DNA from: a virus
Taxonomy: Duplodnaviria > Heunggongvirae > Uroviricota > Caudoviricetes
Direction: 5' to 3' (one strand)
Virus record (IMG/VR): IMGVR_UViG_2617270998_000010
Length of the DNA: 23,666 bases
The notes below the pieces were generated by a model. It did not search any database. It was not told where the DNA came from and worked only from the letters and a program-made list of their open reading frames with translations. This document shows, piece by piece, positions 2,101 to 20,762 of the stretch; the stretch's first letter is position 1; every line of letters starts with the position of its first letter. Both the position numbers and the translations under genes were made by a program.

Positions 2101-3036
2101 TTATACATTTTTAGTAAAAACTCTTTTACATTTTGCCAAAACGATAATGTCAGTAAGTAAGCATTCAAAACTTGCGTTAGTGCCTACAACTTTAACCATA
2201 CCAACGGGTATGCGAGTCAAATCTTTGATACTTATTTTCCCTTCAATATTCACAAGCCACTTGCCATCAGTAACTTCATTAAATTTTGATTCTACAATAT
2301 ATATTTCCTCATCAATGAATACTGCTAAAGGTTGCAGAAAGGTTCCTTCTAACAACTTAGAGTCAAAAGTCAAGAAGGTTTCTTGAGCAAGAGATCCATC
2401 AATTATTTTATGATATGGGATAGTGATAGTATCGTTTCGAGGCTTTTCAAACATTGCCCCGTTACCAGTGGTTAGCCATGTTAATGAAGCACCGGTTTCC
2501 AGTGAGCATTGAATAATCCAGTCAGCAGGAAAGGTATCTCTCATGTAACGATTGGCTAATGTACTTTTTGATACACCAATATGATCAGCTAAAGCTTGTC
2601 TTGTCTTAAATCCATAAGCCAAAACGATTCGCTCTATTGCTGCTTTTCCACCTTGGTTAATAGTAAAAGAGTTCTCATTTTGGATGTCTTGTTCTCTATT
2701 GAGATGTTGATGCTTGCTGTCACAATTGTTGTGACTTTTTTCTGCATTATTTGTAATGCTTCCCTTCTCGGTATCAGTGCCAAATGCCAACCACTCGACC
2801 GGCACTCCAGTCTCCATGCTACAGATAACAACCCAATCAGCAGGGAAAGTGTCACGGGCATACCTGTTCGCCATTGTACTTTGCGATATACCTAGGTGAT
2901 TACAGAATGCTTGTCGGGAAGAAAAACCATAGGCTTTCAGTATCCGATCTATAACCGATTGCCCTCCGCGATTCTGCATGATTAAGGATTTCTTTTTTTC
3001 GTCCACATGGCGAAATGTGATTTCATGTGTTGACAT
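2101..3036 (-). CDS. cI: Phage 186 CI-type immunity repressor with a tandemly duplicated N-terminal DNA-binding domain
   Basis: 311-aa ORF. Two internal repeats (about res 23-88 and 128-195) each resemble the 186 CI N-terminal HTH domain (...AYGF..RQA...HLGISQST.ANRY.RDTFPADW...ETG....WL.TG). Divergent from the Apl/CII operon, as in 186. Confidence 0.8.
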   Translation of the reverse strand: MSTHEITFRHVDEKKKSLIMQNRGGQSVIDRILKAYGFSSRQAFCNHLGISQSTMANRYARDTFPADWVVICSMETGVPVEWLAFGTDTEKGSITNNAEKSHNNCDSKHQHLNREQDIQNENSFTINQGGKAAIERIVLAYGFKTRQALADHIGVSKSTLANRYMRDTFPADWIIQCSLETGASLTWLTTGNGAMFEKPRNDTITIPYHKIIDGSLAQETFLTFDSKLLEGTFLQPLAVFIDEEIYIVESKFNEVTDGKWLVNIEGKISIKDLTRIPVGMVKVVGTNASFECLLTDIIVLAKCKRVFTKNV

Positions 3037-3124
3037 AACCGATTTGTGATCCTATTCTCCGAAATGTGAAGTTAAAGCCACGATTAAAACTGACTCACCA
3101 CAAGCCAATAGGAGATGTTGCATC
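3037..3124. promoter_or_regulatory. Divergent cI / apl intergenic region: expected lysogenic/lytic switch promoters and CI/Apl operators
   Basis: 88-bp gap between the divergently transcribed cI and apl-like genes; AAATGTGA-like motifs recur at about 3012 and 3062. Assigned by position only; exact operators not resolved. Confidence 0.45.
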
Positions 3125-3346
3125 ATGACCCCTAACATTTCAATAACCCTGAATACGCCACATGTCACAATTGAGCGTTATAGCGAACTTACTGGTCTTT
3201 CAATCGACACAATTAACGATATGCTGGCTGACGGTCGCATCCCTCGGCATCGCCTTCGGAAAGACAAGAAAAGAGAAAAGGTAATGATCAACCTTGCTGC
3301 TCTTACCGTTGATGCACTTACTGATTGCAATGTTGTATTCAACTAG
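3125..3346 (+). CDS. apl: Apl/Cox-like excisionase and switch regulator (small HTH protein)
   Basis: 73-aa ORF, first gene of the rightward operon opposite cI and directly upstream of the CII homolog. Assignment rests mainly on position and size. Confidence 0.5.
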
Positions 3347-3378
3347 TTCCATTTTGGGATACATCAGAGGTGTCGACC

Positions 3379-3888
3379 ATGTTTGATTACCAAGTTTCCA
3401 AACATCCACATTTTGATGAAGCCTGTCGTGCATTCGCACTGCGCCACAATCTGGTGCAACTGGCAGAACGTGCAGGCATGAATGTGCAGATTCTGCGGAA
3501 CAAACTGAACCCAGCTCAACCTCATTTATTAACCGCACCAGAAATTTGGTTGCTTACCGATCTGACTGAAGATTCAACGCTGGTAGATGGTTTTCTGGCA
3601 CAGATTCATTGTCTGCCATGTGTTCCGATTAATGAGGTGGCAAAAGAGAAACTACCGCATTACGTCATGAGTGCAACCGCAGAGATCGGGCGTGTTGCTG
3701 CAGGTGCGGTATCTGGCGATGTAAAAACCAGTGCAGGTCGTCGTGATGCTATCAGCAGCATTAACTCTGTAACACGACTGATGGCGCTGGCCGCTGTTTC
3801 ATTGCAGGCCCGTTTACAGGCTAATCCTGCGATGGCGAATGCAGTTGATACCGTGACTGGCCTCGGTGCTTCATTCGGTTTGCTGTGA
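3379..3888 (+). CDS. cII: CII-like transcriptional activator (phage 186 CII family)
   Basis: Start at ATG 3379 (GAGGTG SD), inside ORF-track entry 3325..3888. N-terminus [24 protein letters not shown]...[17 protein letters not shown]...[21 protein letters not shown] matches my recollection of 186 CII closely; 169 aa. Confidence 0.75.
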
Positions 3889-4929: not shown

Positions 4930-5783
4930 GCACCATCCTGAAATGGGCGGGTAATAAAACCGCCATTATGTCCGAACTGAAAAAACACCTTCCTGCTGGC
5001 CCGCGACTGGTTGAACCTTTCGCGGGTTCCTGTGCTGTGATGATGGCGACGGATTACCCCAGCTATCTGGTTGCTGATATTAATCCTGATTTAATCAACC
5101 TCTATAAAAAGATTGCCGCTGATTGCGAATCATTTATATCTCGTGCCAGAGTCTTATTTGAGGAAGCAAACAGGGAGGTGGCTTATTACAACATAAGGCA
5201 GGAGTTTAATTACTCATCTGAAATTACTGATTTCATGAAAGCAGTATATTTCCTGTATCTCAATCGTCACGGTTACCGTGGGTTATGTCGTTATAACAAG
5301 AGCGGACATTTCAACATTCCCTACGGGAATTATAAAAATCCGTATTTCCCTGAAAAAGAAATTCGCGCATTTGCAGAAAAAGCCCAGCGGGCAACGTTTA
5401 TCTGCGCCAGCTTTGATGAAACGCTGGCGATGTTGAAGGCGGGGGATGTGGTGTATTGCGATCCGCCTTATGACGGTACGTTTTCCGGCTATCACACTGA
5501 TGGTTTCACTGAAGATGACCAGTATCACCTGGCATCCGTTCTTGAACATCGATCATCTGAAGGACATCCGGTCATTGTTTCTAACAGTGACACATCCCTG
5601 ATTCGTTCGCTGTATCGCAATTTTACTCACCACTATATCAAGGTAAAACGCAGCATCGGTGTGGCAGCTGGCGAGTGTAAATCAGCAACAGAAATCATCG
5701 CTGTTTCCGGGCCGCGCTGCTGGGTGGGATTTGATCCTTCGCGTGGCGTGGATAGTTCTGCCGTGTACGGAGTGCGTGCATGA
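4926..5783 (+). CDS. dam: DNA adenine methyltransferase (Dam-like, orphan N6-MTase)
   Basis: Start ATG 4926 inside ORF 4866..5783. N-terminus [20 protein letters not shown]...LVEPFAGS (AdoMet motif) and DPPY motif ([10 protein letters not shown]), similar to E. coli Dam. Confidence 0.85.
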
Positions 5784-8194
5784 GCCATGCTGATATGAAC
5801 AACTGCAGCGGCTTTAACGAGGTCGCAGCAGCATTCTCATGGAGCAGCCCGAAAAAGGCCATTAACCCTTATCTGGACCCGGCGGAAGTTGCGCCGGTTT
5901 CTGCGCTTTCAAACCTGATCACTCTGTACGCTGCCGATAACGAGCAGGAACAGCTGCGCCGTGAGGCGCTGAGTGATCAGGTCTGGGAGCGTTATTTCTT
6001 TAATGAATCCCGTGATCCTGTCCAGCGCGAAATCGAGCAGGATAAGCTCATTAGTCGGGCAAAGCTGGCGCATGAGCAGCAGCGTTTTAATCCGGATATG
6101 GTCATTCTGGCGGACGTCAACGCCCAGCCTTCCCATATCAGCAAGCCGCTGATGCAACGTATTGAATACTTCAGCAGCCTGGGCAGGCCAAAGGCTTATT
6201 CCCGCTATTTGCGTGAGACGATTAAGCCATGTCTGGAACGACTGGAGCATGTACGCGAGAGTCAGCTATCCACTTCTTTTCGCTTTATGGCAAGCCATGA
6301 AGGGCTGGACGGCCTGCTGATCCTGCCTGAAATGAGTCAGGATCAGGTGAAGCGCCTGTCTACCCTTGTTGCCGCGCATATGAGCATGTGCCTTGATGCA
6401 GCTTGTGGTGATTTGTATGCCACCGATGACGTTAAGCCAGAAGAAATCCGCAAGACATGGGAAAAGGTGGCAGCGGAAACCCTGCGTCTGGATGTAATCC
6501 CTCCTGCGTTTGAGCAACTCCGTCGGAAAAGAAACCGCCGTAAACCCGTGCCCTATGAACTCATTCCGGGTTCGCTGGCGCGTATGTTGTGCGCCGACTG
6601 GTGGTATCGGAAATTATGGAAGATGCGTTGCGAATGGCGGGAAGAGCAGTTGCGTGCTGTCTGCCTGGTCAGCAAAAAAGCATCTCCCTATGTCAGCTAT
6701 GAAGCCGTGATGCATAAACGTGAGCAGCGCCGTAAGTCGCTGGAGTTTTTCCGTTCTCATGAACTGGTGAACGAAGACGGCGACACGCTGGACATGGAGG
6801 ATGTGGTAAACGCCAGCAGCAGCAACCCGGCGCATCGCCGCAATGAGATGATGGCCTGTGTTAAAGGTCTGGAGCTTATCGCGGAAATGCGCGGTGACTG
6901 CGCCGTTTTCTACACCATCACCTGTCCGTCACGTTTCCATTCCACGCTCAATAACGGCAGACCAAACCCGACCTGGACAAACGCGACGGTAAGACAAAGC
7001 AGCGATTATCTGGTCGGCATGTTTGCTGCATTTCGTAAGGCGATGCACAAAGCCGGGTTGCGCTGGTATGGCGTGCGGGTGGCTGAGCCGCATCATGACG
7101 GCACAGTTCACTGGCACCTGTTGTGTTTCATGCGCAAAAAAGACCGCCGTGCCATCACTGCATTACTGCGTAAGTTTGCCATCCGTGAAGACCGCGAGGA
7201 GCTGGGCAATAACACTGGGCCGCGCTTTAAGTCTGAGTTGATTAACCCGCGCAAAGGAACGCCAACAAGCTACATCGCGAAATACATCAGTAAGAACATT
7301 GACGGGCGTGGTCTGGCTGGCGAGATCAGCAAGGAAACGGGGAAATCCCTGCGTGATAATGCTGAATACGTTAATGCCTGGGCGTCTCTGCATCGTGTTC
7401 AGCAATTCCGCTTCTTTGGCATTCCGGGGCGTCAGGCTTACCGTGAACTGCGATTGCTGGCTGGTCAGGCGGCAAGGCAACAGGGGGACAAAAAAGCAGG
7501 TGCGCCGGTACTGGATAACCCACGCCTTGATGCCATCCTGGCTGCTGCTGATGCTGGTTGTTTTGCCACCTACATCATGAAGCAGGGCGGCGTACTGGTT
7601 CCCCGCAAATATCACCTCATCAGAACCGCTTATGAAATCAACGAAGAGCCGACCGCCTATGGCGATCACGGCATTCGTATTTATGGCATCTGGTCACCTA
7701 TTGCAGAGGGCAAGATCTGCACTCATGCCGTGAAGTGGAAAATGGTTCGTAAGGCCGTTGATGTTCAGGAGGCGGCAGCCGACCAGGGCGCTTGCGCCCC
7801 TTGGACTCGTGGCAATAACTGTCCCCTTGCTGAAAATTTGAACCAACAGGAGAAAGATAAATCAGCTGATGGGGACACCAGAACGGATATTACCCGCATG
7901 GATGACAAGGAGTTGCACGATTTTCTGCACAGTATGAACAAAAAAGAGCGCCGGGAACTGGCTGCAAGGTTACGCCTGGTGAAACCGAAACGGCGTAGAG
8001 ACTACAAACAGCGAATTACAGACCATCAACGACAGCAGCTCGTCTATGAACTGAAGTCCAGAGGATTTGATGGCAGCGAGAAAGAGGTCGATTTACTCCT
8101 TCGCGGTGGCAGTATTCCGTCAGGAGCAGGCCTGCGTATCTTCTATCGGAACCAGCGTCTGAAGGAAGATGATAAGTGGCGGAACCTGTATTAA
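5780..8194 (+). CDS. A: Replication initiation endonuclease gpA (rolling-circle, HUH family)
   Basis: 804-aa ORF; HUH-like motif ([10 protein letters not shown]) and tyrosine motif ([14 protein letters not shown]); position and size match P2 gpA / 186 A; ATGA overlap with dam. Confidence 0.9.
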
Positions 8195-9049: not shown

Positions 9050-9265
9050 ATGTCAAGCATCGCCGCATTTAGCCTGGGTAACCCAGTTGAACGTCTGGCA
9101 AGGGTTCTTAAAGAGAACCAGGACAAACTCAATCTTAGTAAAGATGGTTTTGTGTCCGTAGACTTGTCTAACAAAAGAGCAATGGATGCCATCAAGGCAC
9201 AGATGGATAAGCTTGAAGGCATCAAAACGAGCACTGTAAAAGAGAAAACTAATAGAACCAGATAA
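9050..9265 (+). CDS. Hypothetical small soluble protein (71 aa), first gene of a coupled accessory pair
   Basis: ATG 9050 preceded by AAGGGGGAG; predicted helical and charged; stop overlaps the next start (TAATG at 9263-9267). Confidence 0.5.
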   Translation: MSSIAAFSLGNPVERLARVLKENQDKLNLSKDGFVSVDLSNKRAMDAIKAQMDKLEGIKTSTVKEKTNRTR

Positions 9266-10107
9266 TGGCAACATTACTTTTAGCAGTGATTTTGGTTAGT
9301 GGTTTTATTTATGTAAACCTATCACTTTCAACAAGATACCGATATAAGCGTTCCAACGGCTGGGACGCTTATTTTTTTGTGGCTGCCTGGGGTATCGTTT
9401 TTTTTCTCCTTGGCGGTTTTTTCACCTTTATTTTGAACGTCAGCGGAGGGTTTCGTTTGCTGGCTAATGCCTTGAATCTAACACCTGACAGTTTTAATGG
9501 CATGTTGTCTTCATCGAAAGACAAACTTCAAAGAATAAATGAAATTAAACAGATAGCATGGGTTATGATTTCAATTGTCCTCGCTGCGATTTCAGGTTTT
9601 GGAAATAAGTTACGCACATCACGTGGAGATCGTCGCTGGGATGCCTTAGCTAAAGCTGTGGGTAATAACGCTTTCGAATCATTACTTATGGAAGCGTCCG
9701 CAAGACAGTTTCCGATCATAGCAACTCTGTCGTCTCGCAAAATCTATGTTGGCCTTGTTACTTGTCCGGCGTTAGAAAACGGGCTTTCAGAGCACCTTGA
9801 ACTTCTCCCGATGTTAAGCGGATATCGGGATAAAGATGATCTAACGATTAGTATCACGACTAACTATCACCAACATTATCTTGATAGTGGTGTGATAAGT
9901 GGAATGTCTCGGCTTAATATCGAAGATTTCCGTGTGCTCATACCAAAAGATGAGGTTGAAACAATTTCGTTTTTTGATACTGAGACATATAACAAATTTA
10001 AAGAAAATGAAGCCAGGGATAGAAAGAACTGTCGAAAGATTGGTAGTAAAAGTGCATCTTCGCGCAGCAAGCGTGCAGCAGATGCTGAGTCAAATGATCG
10101 TGCATGA
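9265..10107 (+). CDS. Hypothetical membrane protein (three predicted N-terminal TM helices plus about 160-aa soluble C-terminal domain with basic tail)
   Basis: 280-aa ORF. Hydrophobic segments at res 3-20, 35-57 and 95-112. AT-rich. Sits between the tum module and cos, the old/tin position of P2. No family recognised. Confidence 0.6.
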   Translation: MATLLLAVILVSGFIYVNLSLSTRYRYKRSNGWDAYFFVAAWGIVFFLLGGFFTFILNVSGGFRLLANALNLTPDSFNGMLSSSKDKLQRINEIKQIAWVMISIVLAAISGFGNKLRTSRGDRRWDALAKAVGNNAFESLLMEASARQFPIIATLSSRKIYVGLVTCPALENGLSEHLELLPMLSGYRDKDDLTISITTNYHQHYLDSGVISGMSRLNIEDFRVLIPKDEVETISFFDTETYNKFKENEARDRKNCRKIGSKSASSRSKRAADAESNDRA

Positions 10108-10154
10108 CTATGCTGCATGAGATCGCATGATCGTTTGAGGATCATTTTTGCTAA

Positions 10155-10180
10155 GGCCCGCCAGAACTGGCGGGCTTTTG
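10155..10180 (+). terminator. Rho-independent terminator (GCCCGCC-N6-GGCGGGC followed by TTTT)
   Basis: Perfect 7-bp GC stem and T-tract read directly, 48 bp after the stop of the 9265..10107 gene. Confidence 0.7.
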
Positions 10181-10224
10181 CGTAGATCATGCAACTGCAT
10201 GAAAACCACTACATAAAGCGGGCA

Positions 10225-10243
10225 GGCGTGGCGGGGATACGAG
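10225..10243 (+). other. Probable cos site (19-nt cohesive end) GGCGTGGCGGGGATACGAG
   Basis: Close to the P2/186 cohesive-end sequence as I recall it (GGCG[A/T]GGCGGGGAAAGCA.), with GCGCGCT conserved just downstream; correct orientation relative to the portal gene. Confidence 0.5.
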
Positions 10244-10353
10244 CGCGCGCTCATGGTTGAATTAATGAAATTATGGTGTTAAATAGGCTAGCTTTTTAAG
10301 TCGTGAATATTCAATTTTTCAACTCATTTTTTTCATAGGGAGGAGTAATTGAC

Positions 10354-11052
10354 ATGGTTATGTTAGTGGATGACTGTCCACGATGTGGATCACAAAAAAT
10401 AGCGTTTGATGTTAATGGGCTGAATTGCACTAGGGTTTACAATGCATTGGGCGGGGGTAAAACATACGAGTACGAGGTCTATTGTGTTTGCCGAGAGTGT
10501 CATAAAACGACAATGTTTCTTTGCAGACCTTTAACGAAAAATAAAACTTTAGATGGCTATAATTGGAAAAGTGGAATATTCGGCTTAAAGGAAGTTGCAG
10601 AGGTTGTTAGGCCTATATCACCAGCAGACTTAGCAGTAGAGGAGCCACCAGAGTTCTTACCTGAGCATATCAATAGTGCATATGAGGAAGGGGCGAAATG
10701 TTTGGCTATAGGTTGTTATAATGCAGCAGCAACCATGTTTAGGCTTTGCCTTGATTATGCCACAAAAGGACTTCTTCCTGATGGGGAGCAAGGGCCTGCG
10801 CAAAAAATAAGGAGAAGCCTAGGGTTAAGAATGGAGTGGTTATTTGATAATCATCTACTGCCTGAAGCTTTAAGGGAACTAGCTGAATGCGTTAAAGATG
10901 ACGGAAATGATGGAGCGCATGAAGGTATTTTGGATAAAGCTGCTGCTGAGGATCTTGAAGATTTTACCTATCTTTTTTTAGAACGGCTTTACACTGAACC
11001 TCAACGCCTTATCGAAGCCAAGACAAGGCGTGAACAAAGAAGAAACAAATAA
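10354..11052 (+). CDS. Hypothetical protein: N-terminal Zn-ribbon (CPRCG...CRECH) plus C-terminal DUF4145/HEPN-like domain; accessory gene between cos and Q
   Basis: 232-aa ORF, ATG 10354 with GGGAGGAG SD. Two CxxC pairs in the first 50 residues. C-terminal alpha-helical region ending ...LAECVKDDGNDGAHEG resembles the GN-x-AH signature I associate with DUF4145. AT-rich; convergent with Q (stops 8 bp apart). Confidence 0.6.
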   Translation: MVMLVDDCPRCGSQKIAFDVNGLNCTRVYNALGGGKTYEYEVYCVCRECHKTTMFLCRPLTKNKTLDGYNWKSGIFGLKEVAEVVRPISPADLAVEEPPEFLPEHINSAYEEGAKCLAIGCYNAAATMFRLCLDYATKGLLPDGEQGPAQKIRRSLGLRMEWLFDNHLLPEALRELAECVKDDGNDGAHEGILDKAAAEDLEDFTYLFLERLYTEPQRLIEAKTRREQRRNK

Positions 11053-11060
11053 GTTCGGAA

Positions 11061-12098
11061 TTATTCTTCTGAAAGAATATAGGGCGTAAATTTAATCACT
11101 TCTTCGCCCAGCCAGTCGTTCAGCTCTTGTAGCCTTTTTTGCAAGGGCGTTAATTCATTACGTACAAATACGCGACTGGCTTTCTCCACATCCCCAAACC
11201 CCCCGACATTATTAGGCATTATCCCCATCATTTGTGGCGGCACACGATGCGCCGCCATCATGTCGTCCCGGCTCACGTTCTTGATATTCAGGAACTCATC
11301 CTTCGCCGCCACTTCTGACAACGGGATAATCTGAAGCCCGTCCTTTTTACCGTTAGGCGAGTACATAAACAGGTTACGGAAGTTACCAGGACCTTTGGCG
11401 CTTTTCATCGCATTGCGGAGGTTGTTCACATCCTCCTGGTTCTGCGCAGCATCGGTCATGTACATGATGAAGCCTGCATGACTGCCGTTAATGTAATACT
11501 TGCGGCGGAACAGCGTGGCGGACTCGTTGAGCAGAGCTGACGGAATGGCAGAAAGATAACCGGGCAGGCCGTAGATCTCCTGGTTGATGTCCGGTTCCAT
11601 CAGATGAAAAATGTTGCCTTTCGTGAACTGATACGACTGCGTAGTCATACCGTATTGCACAAACCAGTAGGTATCCAGGTCTAACCCGCGTCGGGTGTAT
11701 TTTGCCAGTGCAGGCTCAAGGGCGATAACTTCACCGAAGCGGTTCGTGCGTTTCTCCAGGTAGGCGTTACCAAAAACCAGATAGTCCTGTACAAAACGCG
11801 AAAAAGCCTGCTGGCTGAGCAGCGGGTGAGGGATGTAGGTGCTGGTCAGAATGTTGCACTTCACTGCAATCGGTGAGCTGTGATGCACGGCGGCGCGGAA
11901 GGTTCGCGCCAGTCCGTCGAAACTCACAGGCGGCTCATACCAACGATCCATCTGTACGCATTCCACATAGTCCAGCAGTTCGCGGCGGTCCAGAACAGGA
12001 ACGGGATCACCGAAGCTGAATGCTTCGGCTGAAGTCTGGCTTTTATGCTGGATCTGTTTCGTCGACGCAGCGCGGTTTTTCTTACTCTTTCCCATCAA
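11061..12098 (-). CDS. Q: Portal protein gpQ
   Basis: 345-aa ORF, size and position as P2 Q; overlaps the P stop (ATGA-type overlap at 12095-12098). Confidence 0.9.
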   Translation of the reverse strand: MMGKSKKNRAASTKQIQHKSQTSAEAFSFGDPVPVLDRRELLDYVECVQMDRWYEPPVSFDGLARTFRAAVHHSSPIAVKCNILTSTYIPHPLLSQQAFSRFVQDYLVFGNAYLEKRTNRFGEVIALEPALAKYTRRGLDLDTYWFVQYGMTTQSYQFTKGNIFHLMEPDINQEIYGLPGYLSAIPSALLNESATLFRRKYYINGSHAGFIMYMTDAAQNQEDVNNLRNAMKSAKGPGNFRNLFMYSPNGKKDGLQIIPLSEVAAKDEFLNIKNVSRDDMMAAHRVPPQMMGIMPNNVGGFGDVEKASRVFVRNELTPLQKRLQELNDWLGEEVIKFTPYILSEE

Positions 12099-13861
12099 AA
12101 AATCTCCACAATATTGCTGGTATTGGCGGACTCGCCCTGCAGCGGTTCATTAAACAGTGCGTGCATTGTTGCCCAGGCCAGATCGGCGTGGCTGGCTTCT
12201 TCGCTGCGGCTGGCTTCATAGGTCGGGCGGTTGCCGCTGGCAGTGGTGGCGCGACGGATTGCCATAAAGGACTGCGCTATGTCGGTGTGCCCGGCGTCAA
12301 ACTCCAGGCGGCGGTGGCTAATAATGTCGTAGGCCTTGAGTACCAGGGCGTTTTTAACGTTGGGGTTGTAGACAAACTCCCGGACGGCAGGAAAGAACGC
12401 TTTCACGTTCTCATAAACCCCGTGACCGACACCTGTCGAGTCGATGCCGATGTATGTCACGTTGTACTGTTCGGTCAGTTTTTTGATGGCGTCCGCCTGG
12501 GCGCGGAAGTCCATCCCGCGCCACTGGTGACGCTCAAGAATACGGAACTTACCGCCCGGCACGGCTGGCGGAGCCACCACCACGCACCCGGCACTGTCAC
12601 CGTTCTGCGTACCTTTTGCCGGGTCATAACCGATCCACACCTCTCGCCAGCCAAACGGGCGCAGGGCCAGTGCATGAAAGTCGGTCCAGACTTCCCAACT
12701 GTCCACCATGCACGCCTGCAGTTCGCTGAGCGGGAACACGGACGCGAGATCGTCCACAAACTCGCACATCAGCAGGTTCTGGTATTCGTCCGGGCTGTAC
12801 TCCATGCGCAGCTGGTCGAGGTCGAATAGGTTACAGCCGCCGCACACCGCATCTTCCACGGTGACTATCTGGCGGTATTGCCCGTCTGCGCACAGCAGGC
12901 CGGGGGCCAGATTGCTGTGGGACAGGTCGATGTCCACCTTGTCGGCTTTGTTGCGCCCACGGTTGAACAGCGCACCGGACCAGAACGGATAAGCACTGTG
13001 GGTCAGGCTGGATGGTGTGGAAAAATAGGTCTGCCGCCATTTCTTGTGAATAGCCATACCGGAAGCCACTTTGCGTAGCTCCTGAAATTTCGGTATCCAG
13101 AAATATTCATCCAGATACAGGTTGCCGTGATAACTCTGGGCCGTGCGGGCATTGGTGCCGAGGAAGTAAAGCGTGGCCCCGTTAGGAAGCACCATCGGAT
13201 CGCCTTTCAGCTCCACCTCCACTTCTTTGGCGAAGTCGATGATGTACTGCTTAAAGACGTGGGCCTGTGCCTTACTGGCGGAAAGGAAAATCTGGTTACG
13301 CCCGGTAAGCAGGGCGTCAATCAGGGCTTCACGGGCAAAGTAAAAGGTCGCGCCGATCTGGCGTGACTTCAGCAGGTTGCGGATGCGGTTGGTTTTTCCG
13401 GCTTCCCACCAGTGGCGCTGGTAGTTGAACATGGAGGAATGGAAGATTTCTTCCAGCTTCTCAATCTGCTCATCGGTGAAGACATTTTTTTCCGGCTGAC
13501 GGCGCGGGCCTTTGTTGCGGTTGGCGACGTTAGGGTTTAAGTCAGCTTCGTTGCCGCCATTGTTAAACTTGCCGATCCGCGCGTGGCGCTCAGACTGGCG
13601 CGCCAGCAGGTCAATCTCTTTGAAATCTTTCCCTTCTTTGTGCTCCTTCATAATGAGCTGGCAGTAGCGTGCGGCGGTGGTGAGCTGCATCTGATCCAGC
13701 GGCCCATAGTCACCCCACTTGTCGCGTTTTTTCCAGCTGTGAACGGTTGCAACTTTCTCGCCCAGCATTTCAGCAATGCGGGCGACGCGGTATCCCTGAA
13801 AGTACAGCAGCATGGCCTGCCGACGGGGATCGAGATCTGCGGGTGTCAGTGTGGTGTTCAT
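12095..13861 (-). CDS. P: Terminase large (ATPase) subunit gpP
   Basis: 588-aa ORF co-oriented with Q; size and position as P2 P (about 590 aa); divergent from the O-N-M-L operon. Confidence 0.9.
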   Translation of the reverse strand: MNTTLTPADLDPRRQAMLLYFQGYRVARIAEMLGEKVATVHSWKKRDKWGDYGPLDQMQLTTAARYCQLIMKEHKEGKDFKEIDLLARQSERHARIGKFNNGGNEADLNPNVANRNKGPRRQPEKNVFTDEQIEKLEEIFHSSMFNYQRHWWEAGKTNRIRNLLKSRQIGATFYFAREALIDALLTGRNQIFLSASKAQAHVFKQYIIDFAKEVEVELKGDPMVLPNGATLYFLGTNARTAQSYHGNLYLDEYFWIPKFQELRKVASGMAIHKKWRQTYFSTPSSLTHSAYPFWSGALFNRGRNKADKVDIDLSHSNLAPGLLCADGQYRQIVTVEDAVCGGCNLFDLDQLRMEYSPDEYQNLLMCEFVDDLASVFPLSELQACMVDSWEVWTDFHALALRPFGWREVWIGYDPAKGTQNGDSAGCVVVAPPAVPGGKFRILERHQWRGMDFRAQADAIKKLTEQYNVTYIGIDSTGVGHGVYENVKAFFPAVREFVYNPNVKNALVLKAYDIISHRRLEFDAGHTDIAQSFMAIRRATTASGNRPTYEASRSEEASHADLAWATMHALFNEPLQGESANTSNIVEIF

Positions 13862-13906
13862 GGCACAAACCTACAGCCTTGAATGAAGGCTTTCCCCGCC
13901 TGCGGT

Positions 13907-13924
13907 TTGTGTGGTTGTCGGTAC
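13907..13924. promoter_or_regulatory. TGT-N12-ACA dyad, candidate Ogr/B-type late-promoter activator site in the P/O divergent region
   Basis: TGTGTGGTTGTCGGTACA read directly, about 80 bp upstream of the O start; P2 late promoters carry this dyad. Confidence 0.4.
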
Positions 13925-14003
13925 AAATACCGCGCATTGTTTCACTGCCCCCATCACCGCAACCATAAGGCTCCAGTAAGTTTTTTCTAACGGAGCACGG
14001 CTC

Positions 14004-18602: not shown

Positions 18603-18996
18603 AGCGGTGCCTTATGTCCGCAATAACCCGGACAAACTGCATCTGTTTGTGGATAACGGTTCGCTGGTTGCCACGGGGGCCAGCTCCATGTCATGGGAGT
18701 ACCGCTACACCCTGAACGTGGTGATTGAGGATTTCAGCGGCGACCAGAATCTGCTGATGGCCCCGGTTTTGCTGTGGTTGCGGGATAACCAGCCCGATGC
18801 CATCAATAACCCGGCGTTACGGGAAAAGCTATTCACCTTTGAGGTGGATATTCTGCGCAACGATGTCTGTGATATCAGCCTTAACCTGCAACTGACGGAG
18901 CGTGTGCTGGTCAGCACTGACGGCAGTGTGTCGAACGTTGAAGCGGTAGCGGAACCTGATGAACCTGAAGAAATGTGGACGGTGAAACGTGGCTGA
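18565..18996 (+). CDS. R: Tail completion protein gpR
   Basis: ORF 18544..18996; preferred start GTG 18565 (AGGAG 7 nt upstream), ATG 18544 is the alternative; size and position as P2 R. Confidence 0.75.
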   Translation: MNKPQSLRHALNKAVPYVRNNPDKLHLFVDNGSLVATGASSMSWEYRYTLNVVIEDFSGDQNLLMAPVLLWLRDNQPDAINNPALREKLFTFEVDILRNDVCDISLNLQLTERVLVSTDGSVSNVEAVAEPDEPEEMWTVKRG

Positions 18997-19435
18997 ACTG
19001 CAGAAGGTGGACGACTGGCTGAGTGCATTATTGGCGAATCTGGAGCCAGCCGCAAGAAGCCGCATGATGCGCCAGCTGGCGCAGGAACTGCGCCGGACAC
19101 AGCAGCAGAACATCAGGATGCAGCGCAATCCAGATGGCAGCAGTTATGAGCCGCGCAGGGTAACAGCACGCAGCAAAAAGGGGCGCATCAAACGTCAGAT
19201 GTTTGCGAAGCTGCGCACCACAAAATACCTGAAAACTGCCGCCAGCGCCGACTCTGCCAGCGTGCAGTTTGAAGGCAAGGTGCAGCGCATTGCCCGCGTT
19301 CATCACTACGGCCTGCGTGATCGCGTCAGTCGCAAAGGACCTGAGGTCCGTTATGCAGAGCGTCGTTTGTTAGGGGGGAATGATGAAGTAGAAACTCGAA
19401 CTAGGAATATCCTAGTTCGATGGCTTATAAGTTAG
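18989..19435 (+). CDS. S: Tail completion protein gpS (3' end lies in AT-rich inserted DNA)
   Basis: 148 aa, size as P2 S (150 aa); the last roughly 13 codons fall in the AT-rich segment that carries the downstream accessory gene. Confidence 0.8.
   Translation: MAELQKVDDWLSALLANLEPAARSRMMRQLAQELRRTQQQNIRMQRNPDGSSYEPRRVTARSKKGRIKRQMFAKLRTTKYLKTAASADSASVQFEGKVQRIARVHHYGLRDRVSRKGPEVRYAERRLLGGNDEVETRTRNILVRWLIS
19397..19419. terminator. Perfect palindrome CGAACTAGG-AATAT-CCTAGTTCG at the convergent junction of S and the accessory gene; candidate bidirectional terminator
   Basis: 9-bp stems and 5-nt loop read directly; lies just 3' of the minus-strand gene stop (19432) and inside the last codons of S. 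Confidence 0.4.
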
Positions 19436-20091
19436 CTCTTATTTTTGGATGAGCGTAAAAGACTCATTAATTCTATGATGATTTTTTCTTGAAGTAGATT
19501 GGGGGTTTTTTCGAAACTTACATTGTGTTCACGTAATGTTTGAATGATTGTGCCGAACTCATCAGTATCACCTTGCGATAGTAAGAATGCAATTCTCTGG
19601 TTGTCATAGTCGTTGCTCATTTGCATGTTGTATTTAATGAACACAATAAATAACCGAAGTATATATCCAGTGAATAATATTCCAGATAAGATTAGTAAAT
19701 AAGGTGCCGCGGTTTCAATGGCTTTTTCAAAGGTGCTTTTAGTATTTAGGTATGTTGAATTAATACCTGATTCATTTTTTTTGATTATCGGGTTTGAATT
19801 TTTTGAAGCGTTGAGGTTTTCTGATGCTTGTGCAAGTTTATCAGTTAACTGTTGCATGATGGTGAACTTTTCGAAAGCAGATTCTATTTGCTGAGAGCTC
19901 AATCTAAGTGAGGCAAGTGCATTGTCACGCTTATTACTTTCTGCTTTATAAAAAATATAAGTTGCAGGAATGCAGAGTACAGCAGTTAATAAAATATATA
20001 AAAATAAGAGCGTAGTAATTTTAGAGCGGCTAGCTCGTTTTTCCATTGTTTTCAATATTTCGTTATATTTTTGTTCGTCAAGAACCATCAT
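19432..20091 (-). CDS. Hypothetical membrane protein (two predicted TM helices flanking a roughly 80-aa polar/coiled segment); AT-rich insertion between S and V
   Basis: ORF 19432..20193 (-). Preferred start is the ATG-ATG at 20091/20088 (AAGGA about 12 nt upstream); the ORF-track start is a GTG at 20193 that would overlap V. TM-like segments ITTLLFLYILLTAVLCIPATYIFY and AAPYLLILSGILFTGYILRLFIVFI. No family recognised. Confidence 0.55.
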   Translation of the reverse strand: MMVLDEQKYNEILKTMEKRASRSKITTLLFLYILLTAVLCIPATYIFYKAESNKRDNALASLRLSSQQIESAFEKFTIMQQLTDKLAQASENLNASKNSNPIIKKNESGINSTYLNTKSTFEKAIETAAPYLLILSGILFTGYILRLFIVFIKYNMQMSNDYDNQRIAFLLSQGDTDEFGTIIQTLREHNVSFEKTPNLLQEKIIIELMSLLRSSKNKS

Positions 20092-20118
20092 CTTAAATTT
20101 TATCCTTGGAAGATACAT

Positions 20119-20136
20119 TGTGCCATTTATAGCACA
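20119..20136. promoter_or_regulatory. TGT-N12-ACA dyad within a perfect palindrome (ATTGTGC-N9-GCACAAT), candidate Ogr/B site of late promoter PV
   Basis: Read directly; about 50 bp upstream of the V start, with a GATAAT -10-like hexamer at 20162-20167; lies in the divergent gap between V and the accessory gene. Confidence 0.45.
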
Positions 20137-20183
20137 ATGTACCTGATCTACCGTAGAAGTCGATAATTCATCATCCTTAGTAG

Positions 20184-20762
20184 ATGAACGCACAACTAAC
20201 AGAAATCATGCGCCTTATCACCAACCTGATCCGCACAGGGGTAGTCACCGAAGTGGACCGGGAAAACTGGCTTTGCCGGGTGAAAACGGGCGAGCTTGAA
20301 ACCAACTGGATCAGCTGGCTGACGCTGCGTGCCGGGAATGCCCGCACATGGTGGCGACCATCGGAAGGTGAGCAGGTGGTGGTGCTGAGTCTGGGAGGCA
20401 ATCTGGAAACTGCCTTTGCGTTGCCCGCAGTCTATTCGAATCAGTTCGCGCCACCTTCGACGTCGGCGGACGCCTGCGTGACAGAACATCCTGACGGTGG
20501 CTGGTTTGAATACGAACCCGCCACCGGGCGCTGGTATGTCAGGGGCATCAAATCCATGGTCATTGAGGCTGCCGACAACATCACCCTGAAAACCAGTGAG
20601 TTTGTGCTGGAGGCTGACCGCACGCGTATTAACAGCGAAGTAGTGATCAATGGTGGCGTTACCCAGGGCGGCGGTGCAATGAGTTCTAACGGAATTGTGG
20701 TTGATGCACATCAACATACTGGCGTCCTGAAAGGCGGCGATACAACCGGAGGCCCGGTATGA
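20184..20762 (+). CDS. V: Baseplate spike protein gpV
   Basis: 192 aa; IRTGVVTEVD...CRVKTGELETNWISWLTLRAGNARTWWRPSEGEQ parallels recalled P2 gpV (IRTGIIVETD...CRVQTGGMCTDWLQWLTHRAGRSRTWWAPSVGEQ). Confidence 0.85.
   Translation: MNAQLTEIMRLITNLIRTGVVTEVDRENWLCRVKTGELETNWISWLTLRAGNARTWWRPSEGEQVVVLSLGGNLETAFALPAVYSNQFAPPSTSADACVTEHPDGGWFEYEPATGRWYVRGIKSMVIEAADNITLKTSEFVLEADRTRINSEVVINGGVTQGGGAMSSNGIVVDAHQHTGVLKGGDTTGGPV

Follow-up and report, generated by a model that had tools for sequence, protein, structure and literature searches.

Why does a prophage carry an AT-rich gene, read from the opposite strand, in the middle of its late structural genes? The question is raised by a stretch of 23,666 nucleotides (IMG/VR virus record IMGVR_UViG_2617270998_000010; hereafter, the window) from a P2/186-like prophage (Peduoviridae) of E. 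coli, in which holin, lysozyme, lysB/lysC, R and S are followed by a single opposite-strand gene, referred to here as the cargo gene, and then by V, W, J and I. A first-pass annotation, made from the sequence of the window alone, had described between S and V an AT-rich, opposite-strand gene for a protein of approximately 220 amino acid residues (aa) with two transmembrane (TM) segments, and the gene is indeed of this kind, with a product of 219 aa and a guanine-plus-cytosine (GC) content of 33.2% vs 58% in S and 57% in V. The segment is almost certainly a moron that occupies the classical orf30 slot, long known from P2-like phages. The reading preferred here, to which a probability of roughly 0.45 is given, is that this moron encodes an envelope-level anti-phage protein, with superinfection exclusion as the favored mode of action.

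An insertion amid a late structural cluster had at first been regarded as unusual; the position is, however, that of orf30 in phage P2, a documented site of horizontal transfer. Together with Z/fun and the TO (old/tin) region, orf30 is one of the three places of horizontal transfer of P2-like phages (PMC3091744), and a different 741-bp open reading frame (ORF) occupies the slot in phage R18C (PMC6823313). In P2 itself, orf30 (NP_046770), annotated as non-essential in its record, shares both the slot and the layout, being an AT-rich (34% GC), minus-strand single gene situated between S and the PV activator site, with the putative O-operon terminator on its S side and with a hairpin following it. 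Its product is also a predicted membrane protein, although with 261 aa and three hydrophobic segments it differs from the window protein with its 219 aa and two TM segments, and homology between the two was rejected (BLASTP E = 0.82).

The occupancy of this slot was surveyed by searching E. coli genomes with a synthetic query that combines S and V and by taking an evenly spaced sample. Approximately 34 of the 42 resolved S–V junctions are empty (span of 1094 bp), and the other eight contain a single extra gene; in the empty site, represented by loci L005 and L006, the spacer between S and V measures 68 bp. Of 5426 complete E. coli genomes, 7 contain the 821-bp stretch around the cargo gene at 99.9% identity, one being EC21Z-137, where the annotation covers the entire prophage, starting with integrase and CI and reaching ogr. 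This comparison supports the view that the gene is an accessory insert outside the structural module. Among the fetched examples, the slot houses at least eight cargo families without detectable sequence similarity to each other (Table 1), and a relationship of the window protein to the cargo of phage Cartapus was likewise considered and rejected. DUF6216 of E. coli B/BL21 has the same slot, orientation and low GC content (33%) and is also a multi-TM protein, but it belongs to an unrelated family without a BLAST match. The TIR-domain and AriA/OLD-like cargos are co-directional with the late genes; thus, opposite orientation in the slot is common, not obligatory. Overall, the S–V slot looks like an under-described defense hotspot, mostly of single genes. 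Past the ATPase cargo of locus L027, directly upstream of the PV dyad, there is also a tandem repeat of the heptanucleotide CTCTAAC (approximately seven copies, ~3355–3405).

The limits first assigned to the insert, 19380–20183, match the segment that lacks homology to the empty-site relatives, since this homology ends near 19380, approximately 55 nucleotides before the S stop, and returns exactly at the ATG of V. The cassette so delimited has 33–36% GC vs 57–58% in its flanks, and it includes the last ~18 codons of S, which have 35.7% GC vs 53.6% in the empty-site version and encode a C-terminus that is divergent but similar. The spacer around the PV dyad also varies from cassette to cassette, so that an S tail and a PV promoter travel with each cassette, an arrangement that fits exchange through homologous recombination within S and V rather than insertion at one specific site. 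The cassette, which has the end of the O late operon (S) on one side and the PV activator site on the other, would have been acquired horizontally and would pass from one P2-like phage to another when its flanking genes, S and V, recombine. Among the features of a moron, presence or absence among close relatives, deviant GC content and, as judged in silico, a hairpin terminator of its own are found here.

The longest form of the cargo ORF extends over 19432..20193 of the minus strand and would give 253 aa from a GTG codon. However, the identical RefSeq gene (WP_000989498.1, a hypothetical protein of 219 aa) starts at the ATG at 20091, and because M(M)xLD is the equivalent start of every homologue, the 219-aa version has the right start. 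At its other end, the gene overlaps S, the two stop codons having the bases TTAG (19432–19435) in common. A 9-bp palindrome had been annotated at this overlap; the overlap itself stands, while the palindrome does not lie at the stop and its arms measure 11 bp rather than 9. It corresponds to a hairpin that lies 12 nucleotides past the cargo stop, within S codons, with a folding energy of -16.3 kcal/mol (z = -4.7 vs shuffles) and a U-rich tail, predicted in silico, on the cargo strand. This hairpin looks like the own terminator of the cargo gene, although it is kept only in a close Enterobacter relative and was, thus, rejected as a conserved feature of the family.

At the opposite end of the cassette, a TGT-N12-ACA late-activator dyad had been noted in the V promoter region, and it is present at the expected place (Table 1), within a longer palindrome at 20111–20144 (arms 20111–20126 and 20129–20144). 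In P2 the spacing of the dyad is N11 rather than N12, and the equivalent element is annotated in the P2 record as 'activator binding site; activation of pV promoter'. Since the number of TGT-N12-ACA motifs across the window is that expected by chance (6 found vs 5.8 expected), the dyad is meaningful only through its position. Whether the slot is empty or filled by any of the eight cargo types, and whichever way the cargo points, the center of the dyad precedes the V ATG by 55.5–57.5 bp. Because this distance is constant whatever the cargo or its orientation, the dyad is the PV activator site and not a regulator common to the cargo, which goes against the earlier idea that cargo gene and V share it.

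This geometry bears directly on the possibility that the cargo is a late-co-regulated phage function, for instance in lysis timing or as an assembly helper, switched on through an Ogr-type activator bound at the dyad. The symmetric dyad is indeed only ~28–45 bp from the cargo start codon (its center is ~36 bp from the ATG), and the lysis cassette is found a few genes upstream of the cargo. However, when the -55 geometry is mirrored on the minus strand, the predicted transcription start falls near 20072, which is within the cargo ORF and past the codons for the conserved N-terminal residues Y9, L13, K18 and R19, so that late co-activation of the cargo by the canonical Ogr-type mechanism is unlikely. 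Moreover, the slot takes unrelated cargo either way round with the dyad fixed relative to V, most prophages that are otherwise near-identical lack the gene, which is, hence, dispensable, and the P2 counterpart is annotated as non-essential. The divergent promoters PP and PO also appear to own one dyad each: two more TGT-N12-ACA dyads, at 13850–13867 and 13908–13925 (58 bp apart), are presumably their separate activator sites. A late-co-regulated function is, thus, very improbable.

The promoter of the cargo must lie within the 92 bp at 20092–20183 and would, thus, overlap PV. Of two sigma-70-like candidates, one, an extended -10 element, can be read inside the dyad spacer (Table 1), and the other, offered by a promoter scan, runs from 20126 to 20097. 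The versions from E. coli, Enterobacter and Klebsiella L007 have an identical dyad, those of L021 and L009 do not, and the extended -10 element was, therefore, rejected as a conserved family feature. If this element were real, one could speculate that binding of the activator would occlude the cargo promoter, providing a simple switch-off at the late stage. An additional layer of control is suggested by the DUF6216 cargo of the BL21 prophage, the only cargo of the S–V slot with expression data and unrelated to that of the window, which coincides with an H-NS peak in chromatin immunoprecipitation sequencing and is up-regulated in an hns stpA double mutant (bioRxiv 10.64898/2026.09.05.749240). 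With its 33% GC, the window cargo is a plausible H-NS target and, by analogy, it is probably damped by this protein. The cargo would be expressed from its own promoter, probably under H-NS damping, and not through the late activator in its canonical geometry, and it would have no role in virion assembly.

The protein itself shows two hydrophobic TM segments by hydropathy, at residues ~25–48 and 129–153, which separate the N-terminal helix, the loop and the C-terminal domain listed in Table 1. Mean identity to the window protein among its relatives is lowest of the five regions in the loop (33%) and reaches 75% in TM2 and 68% in the C-terminus, while F151 and Y154 are near-invariant across 60 sequences. 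The ratio of nonsynonymous to synonymous substitution rates (dN/dS) against the Enterobacter orthologue is 0.19 for the whole gene, with 0.275 for the loop and 0.09 for TM2 plus the C-terminus, and the cargo is thus a functional gene under purifying selection. In Enterobacter cloacae JBBBYG010000003.1 (L010), the P2-like prophage is degraded, with ogr coming after W and a gap and the tail genes J to D missing. The cargo gene is intact in this remnant, with 87% identity and a dN/dS of 0.19. The rarity of the gene in E. coli, with only the seven carriers mentioned above, could suggest a decaying passenger, i.e., a hitch-hiking ORF with no current function. However, the low dN/dS, a frame that stays intact across hosts, the retention in the degraded Enterobacter prophage and the existence of a broad family with a conserved core make such an explanation scarcely credible.

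This family is an uncharacterized and unannotated one of the Enterobacterales. A word-indexed search returned 19 clusters, all 'hypothetical' and from E. coli, Enterobacter or Klebsiella only; a second indexed search added Yersinia, Serratia, Proteus and Obesumbacterium as hosts, and, at 50% identity, an exhaustive profile search yielded 96 representatives, including 27 with E <= 1e-10. The conserved plan comprises an N-terminal helix (LxxLxKRAxxxR), TM1, a variable loop, TM2 and a C-terminal domain of ~65 residues with the consensus IKYYMQL..DYENQ..A..LS.GD...F...L..LR..NI.FEKTP..PQEKII. For the close homologues, every context fetched from E. coli, Enterobacter and Klebsiella is the S–V slot of a P2-like prophage with the gene in the same orientation, and the slot also houses the most distant of these close homologues (31% identity). 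The window protein matches phrog_2611 over residues 40–244 of the 253-aa ORF (3e-29), and a member of this group occupies the same slot in Klebsiella Kapieceevirus phages; phrog_2611 is, however, unannotated and of unknown function, so that membership gives no functional clue. In Klebsiella phage ST512-KPC3phi13.2 and six related records (L003, 2072–2812), the gene is mis-annotated, with a product of 169 aa and, on the opposite strand, a 51-aa ORF that is spurious; the real ORF starts at the ATG at 2121, has ~230 aa and covers both TM helices. Profile and structure searches with the window protein, which the first-pass annotation had proposed as a check, led to no meaningful relative: no match emerged from PDB sequences by profile search (E >= 0.4), and Pfam DUF3112, with 21.6 bits vs a gathering cut-off of 23.3, stayed below threshold, its match covering hydrophobic segments only. 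Furthermore, no functional information was found in the literature on WP_000989498.1, phrog_2611 or a function of orf30.

Structural modeling was also performed. A first AlphaFold2 (AF2) model from 16 sequences was poor (predicted local distance difference test, pLDDT, of 59.7), and a second one from 60 sequences reached a pLDDT of 72.3, with a confident core (83–91 for residues 1–50 and 81–89 for residues 121–180, lower beyond 180) and a loop tip, residues 90–117, that falls below 50 and is predicted to be disordered. The model is all-helical, with two very long helices and a small bridge from residue 3 to residue 175, by which the N-terminal part and the C-terminal part would share one side of the membrane, as expected for an N-in/C-in arrangement. 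We infer from it an inner-membrane protein of N-in/C-in topology with a periplasmic loop. According to the preferred reading, the variable periplasmic loop would encounter envelope components or the incoming phage, and anchoring or oligomerization of the protein would fall to the conserved cytoplasmic and TM core, formed by the N-terminal helix, TM2 and the C-terminal domain. HK97 gp15 (PMC3594210) and P22 SieA (PMC10883804), which are described as prophage-expressed superinfection-exclusion functions, provide precedents in that they are likewise small inner-membrane proteins encoded by stand-alone cassettes of temperate phages, the localization of the window protein being a predicted one. HK97 gp15 is, moreover, embedded among tail genes, as is the window cargo. 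On the other hand, no sequence or fold relation of the window protein to either of them was found, and its cytoplasmic domain is unusually well conserved. Tail-assembly interference (Tai) was also considered as a mode of action and dropped, the Tai paper making no mention of P2-like phages or membrane proteins.

The concentration of conservation in TM2 and in the cytoplasmic C-terminal domain is also what one would expect of an abortive-infection (Abi) or toxic effector, in which the cytoplasmic domain would sense infection and TM oligomers would depolarize the membrane, so that the cell dies before the phage completes its cycle. The AT-richness and the probable silencing by H-NS would suit a potentially toxic gene, and the cassette has a single gene with no conserved partner in most contexts. 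Moreover, Abi-type proteins are among its neighbors and slot-mates (TIR, AbiV, ApeA and AriA/OLD-like). Beyond the S–V slot, distant members of the family turn up in several settings. In Yersinia they lie between two integrases and have a SacI-type restriction–modification system or a SIR2-STAND protein as neighbor, and in Serratia an integrase and an AAA_15/AAA_21 ATPase are adjacent. Further members are found downstream of icd, in an island together with a colicin, HEPN-ApeA and an HNH protein, and close to HEPN-AbiV at the Z/fun hotspot of a different P2-like prophage. However, no similarity to known Abi membrane effectors was found, and the mechanism leaves without use both the long, fast-varying periplasmic loop and the fragment of the host protein MepS that the loop contains in some relatives (see below). 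An abortive-infection role is, on balance, unlikely. By guilt by association, the locations of the distant members are consistent with a family of mobile accessory cargo of defense and competition hotspots, and, with the defense-type slot-mates, they also speak for the preferred reading. In two of the loci, L024 and L025, a conserved 277-aa gene (2942–3775 in both) precedes the family member with identical spacing, and no Pfam or PADLOC match was obtained for it. The contexts of the two loci differ, one being the colicin/ApeA island and the other the P2-like Z/fun hotspot, and the 277-aa gene and the family member may form a two-gene cassette in that subgroup.

The loop of the distant members provides a further lead. 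In a subgroup from Serratia, Obesumbacterium, Proteus and Yersinia, ~60 residues of the loop are ~70% identical to residues 4–61 of mature MepS/Spr (LQASQDEFE..V..V..K..IMD.YADWKGVRYRLG), ending just before the catalytic Cys motif and scoring 9e-20 against NCBIfam PRK10838 and 2e-13 against PDB 8xud. Proteins P0117, P0114, P0124, P0127 and P0131 (loci L011–L016, L024 and L025) bear this segment and keep F31. The disordered N-terminus of MepS binds the adaptor NlpI, fragments 1–39 and 1–53 being enough for this, and an F31A mutant has been assayed for complex formation (PMC11211486). In another subgroup (P0035–P0039), a piece of NlpC/P60, GDLVLFR...HVGIYLGN, is found in place of the MepS segment. 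These inserts support a periplasmic location of the loop and suggest that it may act as an exchangeable bait.

On this basis, the protein could instead be a lysogenic-conversion factor that alters the envelope or the peptidoglycan (NlpI/Prc/MepS axis, vesiculation, stress or colonization fitness) and has no direct anti-phage role. Both kinds of insert, the MepS copy with its F31 and the NlpC/P60 piece, fit this explanation, and P2 hotspots carry non-defense cargo as well. However, the genomic neighborhoods are mostly made of defense or competition genes, and the loop of the window protein itself has no significant MepS similarity: a MepS-like segment in it was rejected, since its local score of 31 compares with 26 +/- 5 in shuffles (p ~0.17), and no NCBIfam match was obtained at E <= 0.1. 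MepS mimicry is, thus, a lead on the family and says nothing direct on the window gene, and lysogenic conversion without an anti-phage role appears unlikely. A broader proposal, in which the family would be a new envelope-acting accessory or defense protein with a two-TM scaffold and an exchangeable periplasmic bait (in some members a copy of the NlpI-binding part of MepS, tying prophage and island cargo to the NlpI–Prc–MepS circuit of cell-wall control), and the S–V slot an overlooked defense hotspot, is rather improbable when taken as a whole.

Several observations weigh against the reading of the window cargo as an envelope-level anti-phage protein. Firstly, scans with PADLOC, PHROG, Pfam and NCBIfam revealed no homology to a known exclusion or defense protein: in PADLOC-DB v2 the window protein matched 0 families at E <= 10, nothing exceeded the threshold in Pfam and NCBIfam, and phrog_2611 was the only significant PHROG. 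Fold searches, likewise, gave only generic long-helix matches. Secondly, a conserved cytoplasmic domain is not needed by a pure periplasmic blocker and would fit a sensor, an effector or a host-interaction role equally. Thirdly, location is weak evidence, since these hotspots also carry cargo unrelated to defense (Rousset 2022). Finally, the two candidates for the cargo promoter differ from each other and neither is conserved across the family. The anatomy, the presence or absence among relatives, the purifying selection, the distribution of the family and the defense-type neighbors and slot-mates are established from sequence, and what we infer is the promoter, the H-NS control, the topology and the anti-phage role of the cargo.

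Table 1. Coordinates of the features discussed and cargos of the S–V slot. Positions are those of the window unless a locus (L026, L027) is named.
Feature	Position	Strand	Details
Tail gene S	18989-19435	+	PF05069, 9e-41
AT-rich replacement cassette	19380..20183		end of S (~18 codons), cargo gene and PV promoter region
Cassette-borne 3' end of S	19380..19435	+	35.7% GC; divergent S C-terminus (...NDEVETRTRNILVRWLIS)
Terminator-like hairpin of the cargo gene	19396..19420	-	perfect arms of 11 bp, loop of 3 nucleotides, then GTTTCTACTT
Cargo coding sequence	19432..20091	-	219 aa; stop 19432-19434; second in-frame ATG at 20088
Conserved cytoplasmic C-terminal domain (predicted), residues 154-219	19435..19632	-	motif YNMQMSNDYDNQ..LLS.G....F......R.HN.SFEKTP..PQEKII
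TM helix 2 (predicted), residues 129-153	19633..19707	-	most conserved segment, mean identity 75%
Variable loop (predicted periplasmic), residues 49-128	19708..19947	-	helical arms, disordered tip 90-117
TM helix 1 (predicted), residues 25-48	19948..20019	-	hydropathy; helical in the AF2 model
N-terminal cytoplasmic helix (predicted), residues 1-24	20020..20091	-	motif LxxxxKRAxxS; L13, K18 and R19 conserved; AF2 pLDDT 85-91
Shine-Dalgarno-like AAGGA (candidate)	20103..20107	-	11 nucleotides upstream of ATG 20091; read from the sequence
Ogr-type TGT-N12-ACA dyad of the PV promoter	20119..20136	+	TGTGCCATTTATAGCACA; center 56.5 bp before the V ATG
Candidate extended -10 of the cargo gene, TGcTATAAA	20126..20134	-	inside the dyad spacer; prediction read from the sequence
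Baseplate gene V	20184-20762	+	PF04717 plus Apex motif; homology of relatives restarts exactly at the V ATG
Slot cargo: family of the window protein			window, and L021 at 42% identity
Slot cargo: DUF6216			BL21/E. coli B
Slot cargo: P2 Orf30			phage P2
Slot cargo: 250-aa protein			N-terminal TM helices
Slot cargo: 245-aa soluble protein			
Slot cargo: 176-aa soluble protein			also in phage Cartapus
Slot cargo: TIR-domain protein	L026 2624-3424		E. coli AH04; PADLOC PDC-S66 9e-7, SpbK 1e-4
Slot cargo: 652-aa AriA/OLD-like ATPase	L027 1367-3325		E. coli SF-468; PADLOC AriA 1e-21, Old 2e-11

Other likely accessory regions can be recognized in the window. Two plus-strand ORFs in DNA of 41–44% GC (9265–10107 and 10354–11052) follow the replication gene (5780–8194) and precede a minus-strand ORF of 345 aa (11061–12098), presumed to be the portal gene; the region 9265–11052 would be the classical TO hotspot. 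The ORF at 10354–11052 matches DUF4145 (4.5e-7) and, weakly, PD-T7-4 (1.2e-6), and no match was obtained for that at 9265–10107. Between the presumed integrase gene (1–1068) and the CI ORF lies, in DNA of 32–35% GC, a minus-strand ORF of 314 aa (1145–2089) with no Pfam match, which is likely another accessory cargo. The CI-repressor ORF itself (2101–3036, minus strand) encodes 311 aa with two CI helix–turn–helix matches and a CI C-terminal domain, while the CI of a related prophage (L002) has 189 aa; the longer version may reflect an upstream in-frame extension or a duplicated helix–turn–helix.

The layout of the locus is textbook P2 biology, and its value lies in the cargo, an unannotated, selected, single-gene family of membrane proteins that recurs in prophage and defense hotspots across Enterobacterales. 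If a role in phage exclusion is true, the family would represent a new one-gene envelope defense, and the S–V slot, mostly ignored in recent work on P2 defense hotspots, would be worth mining. If the MepS-mimic loops of the distant members are functional, they would provide an unexpected tie between the cargo of mobile elements and the control of a host cell-wall hydrolase.

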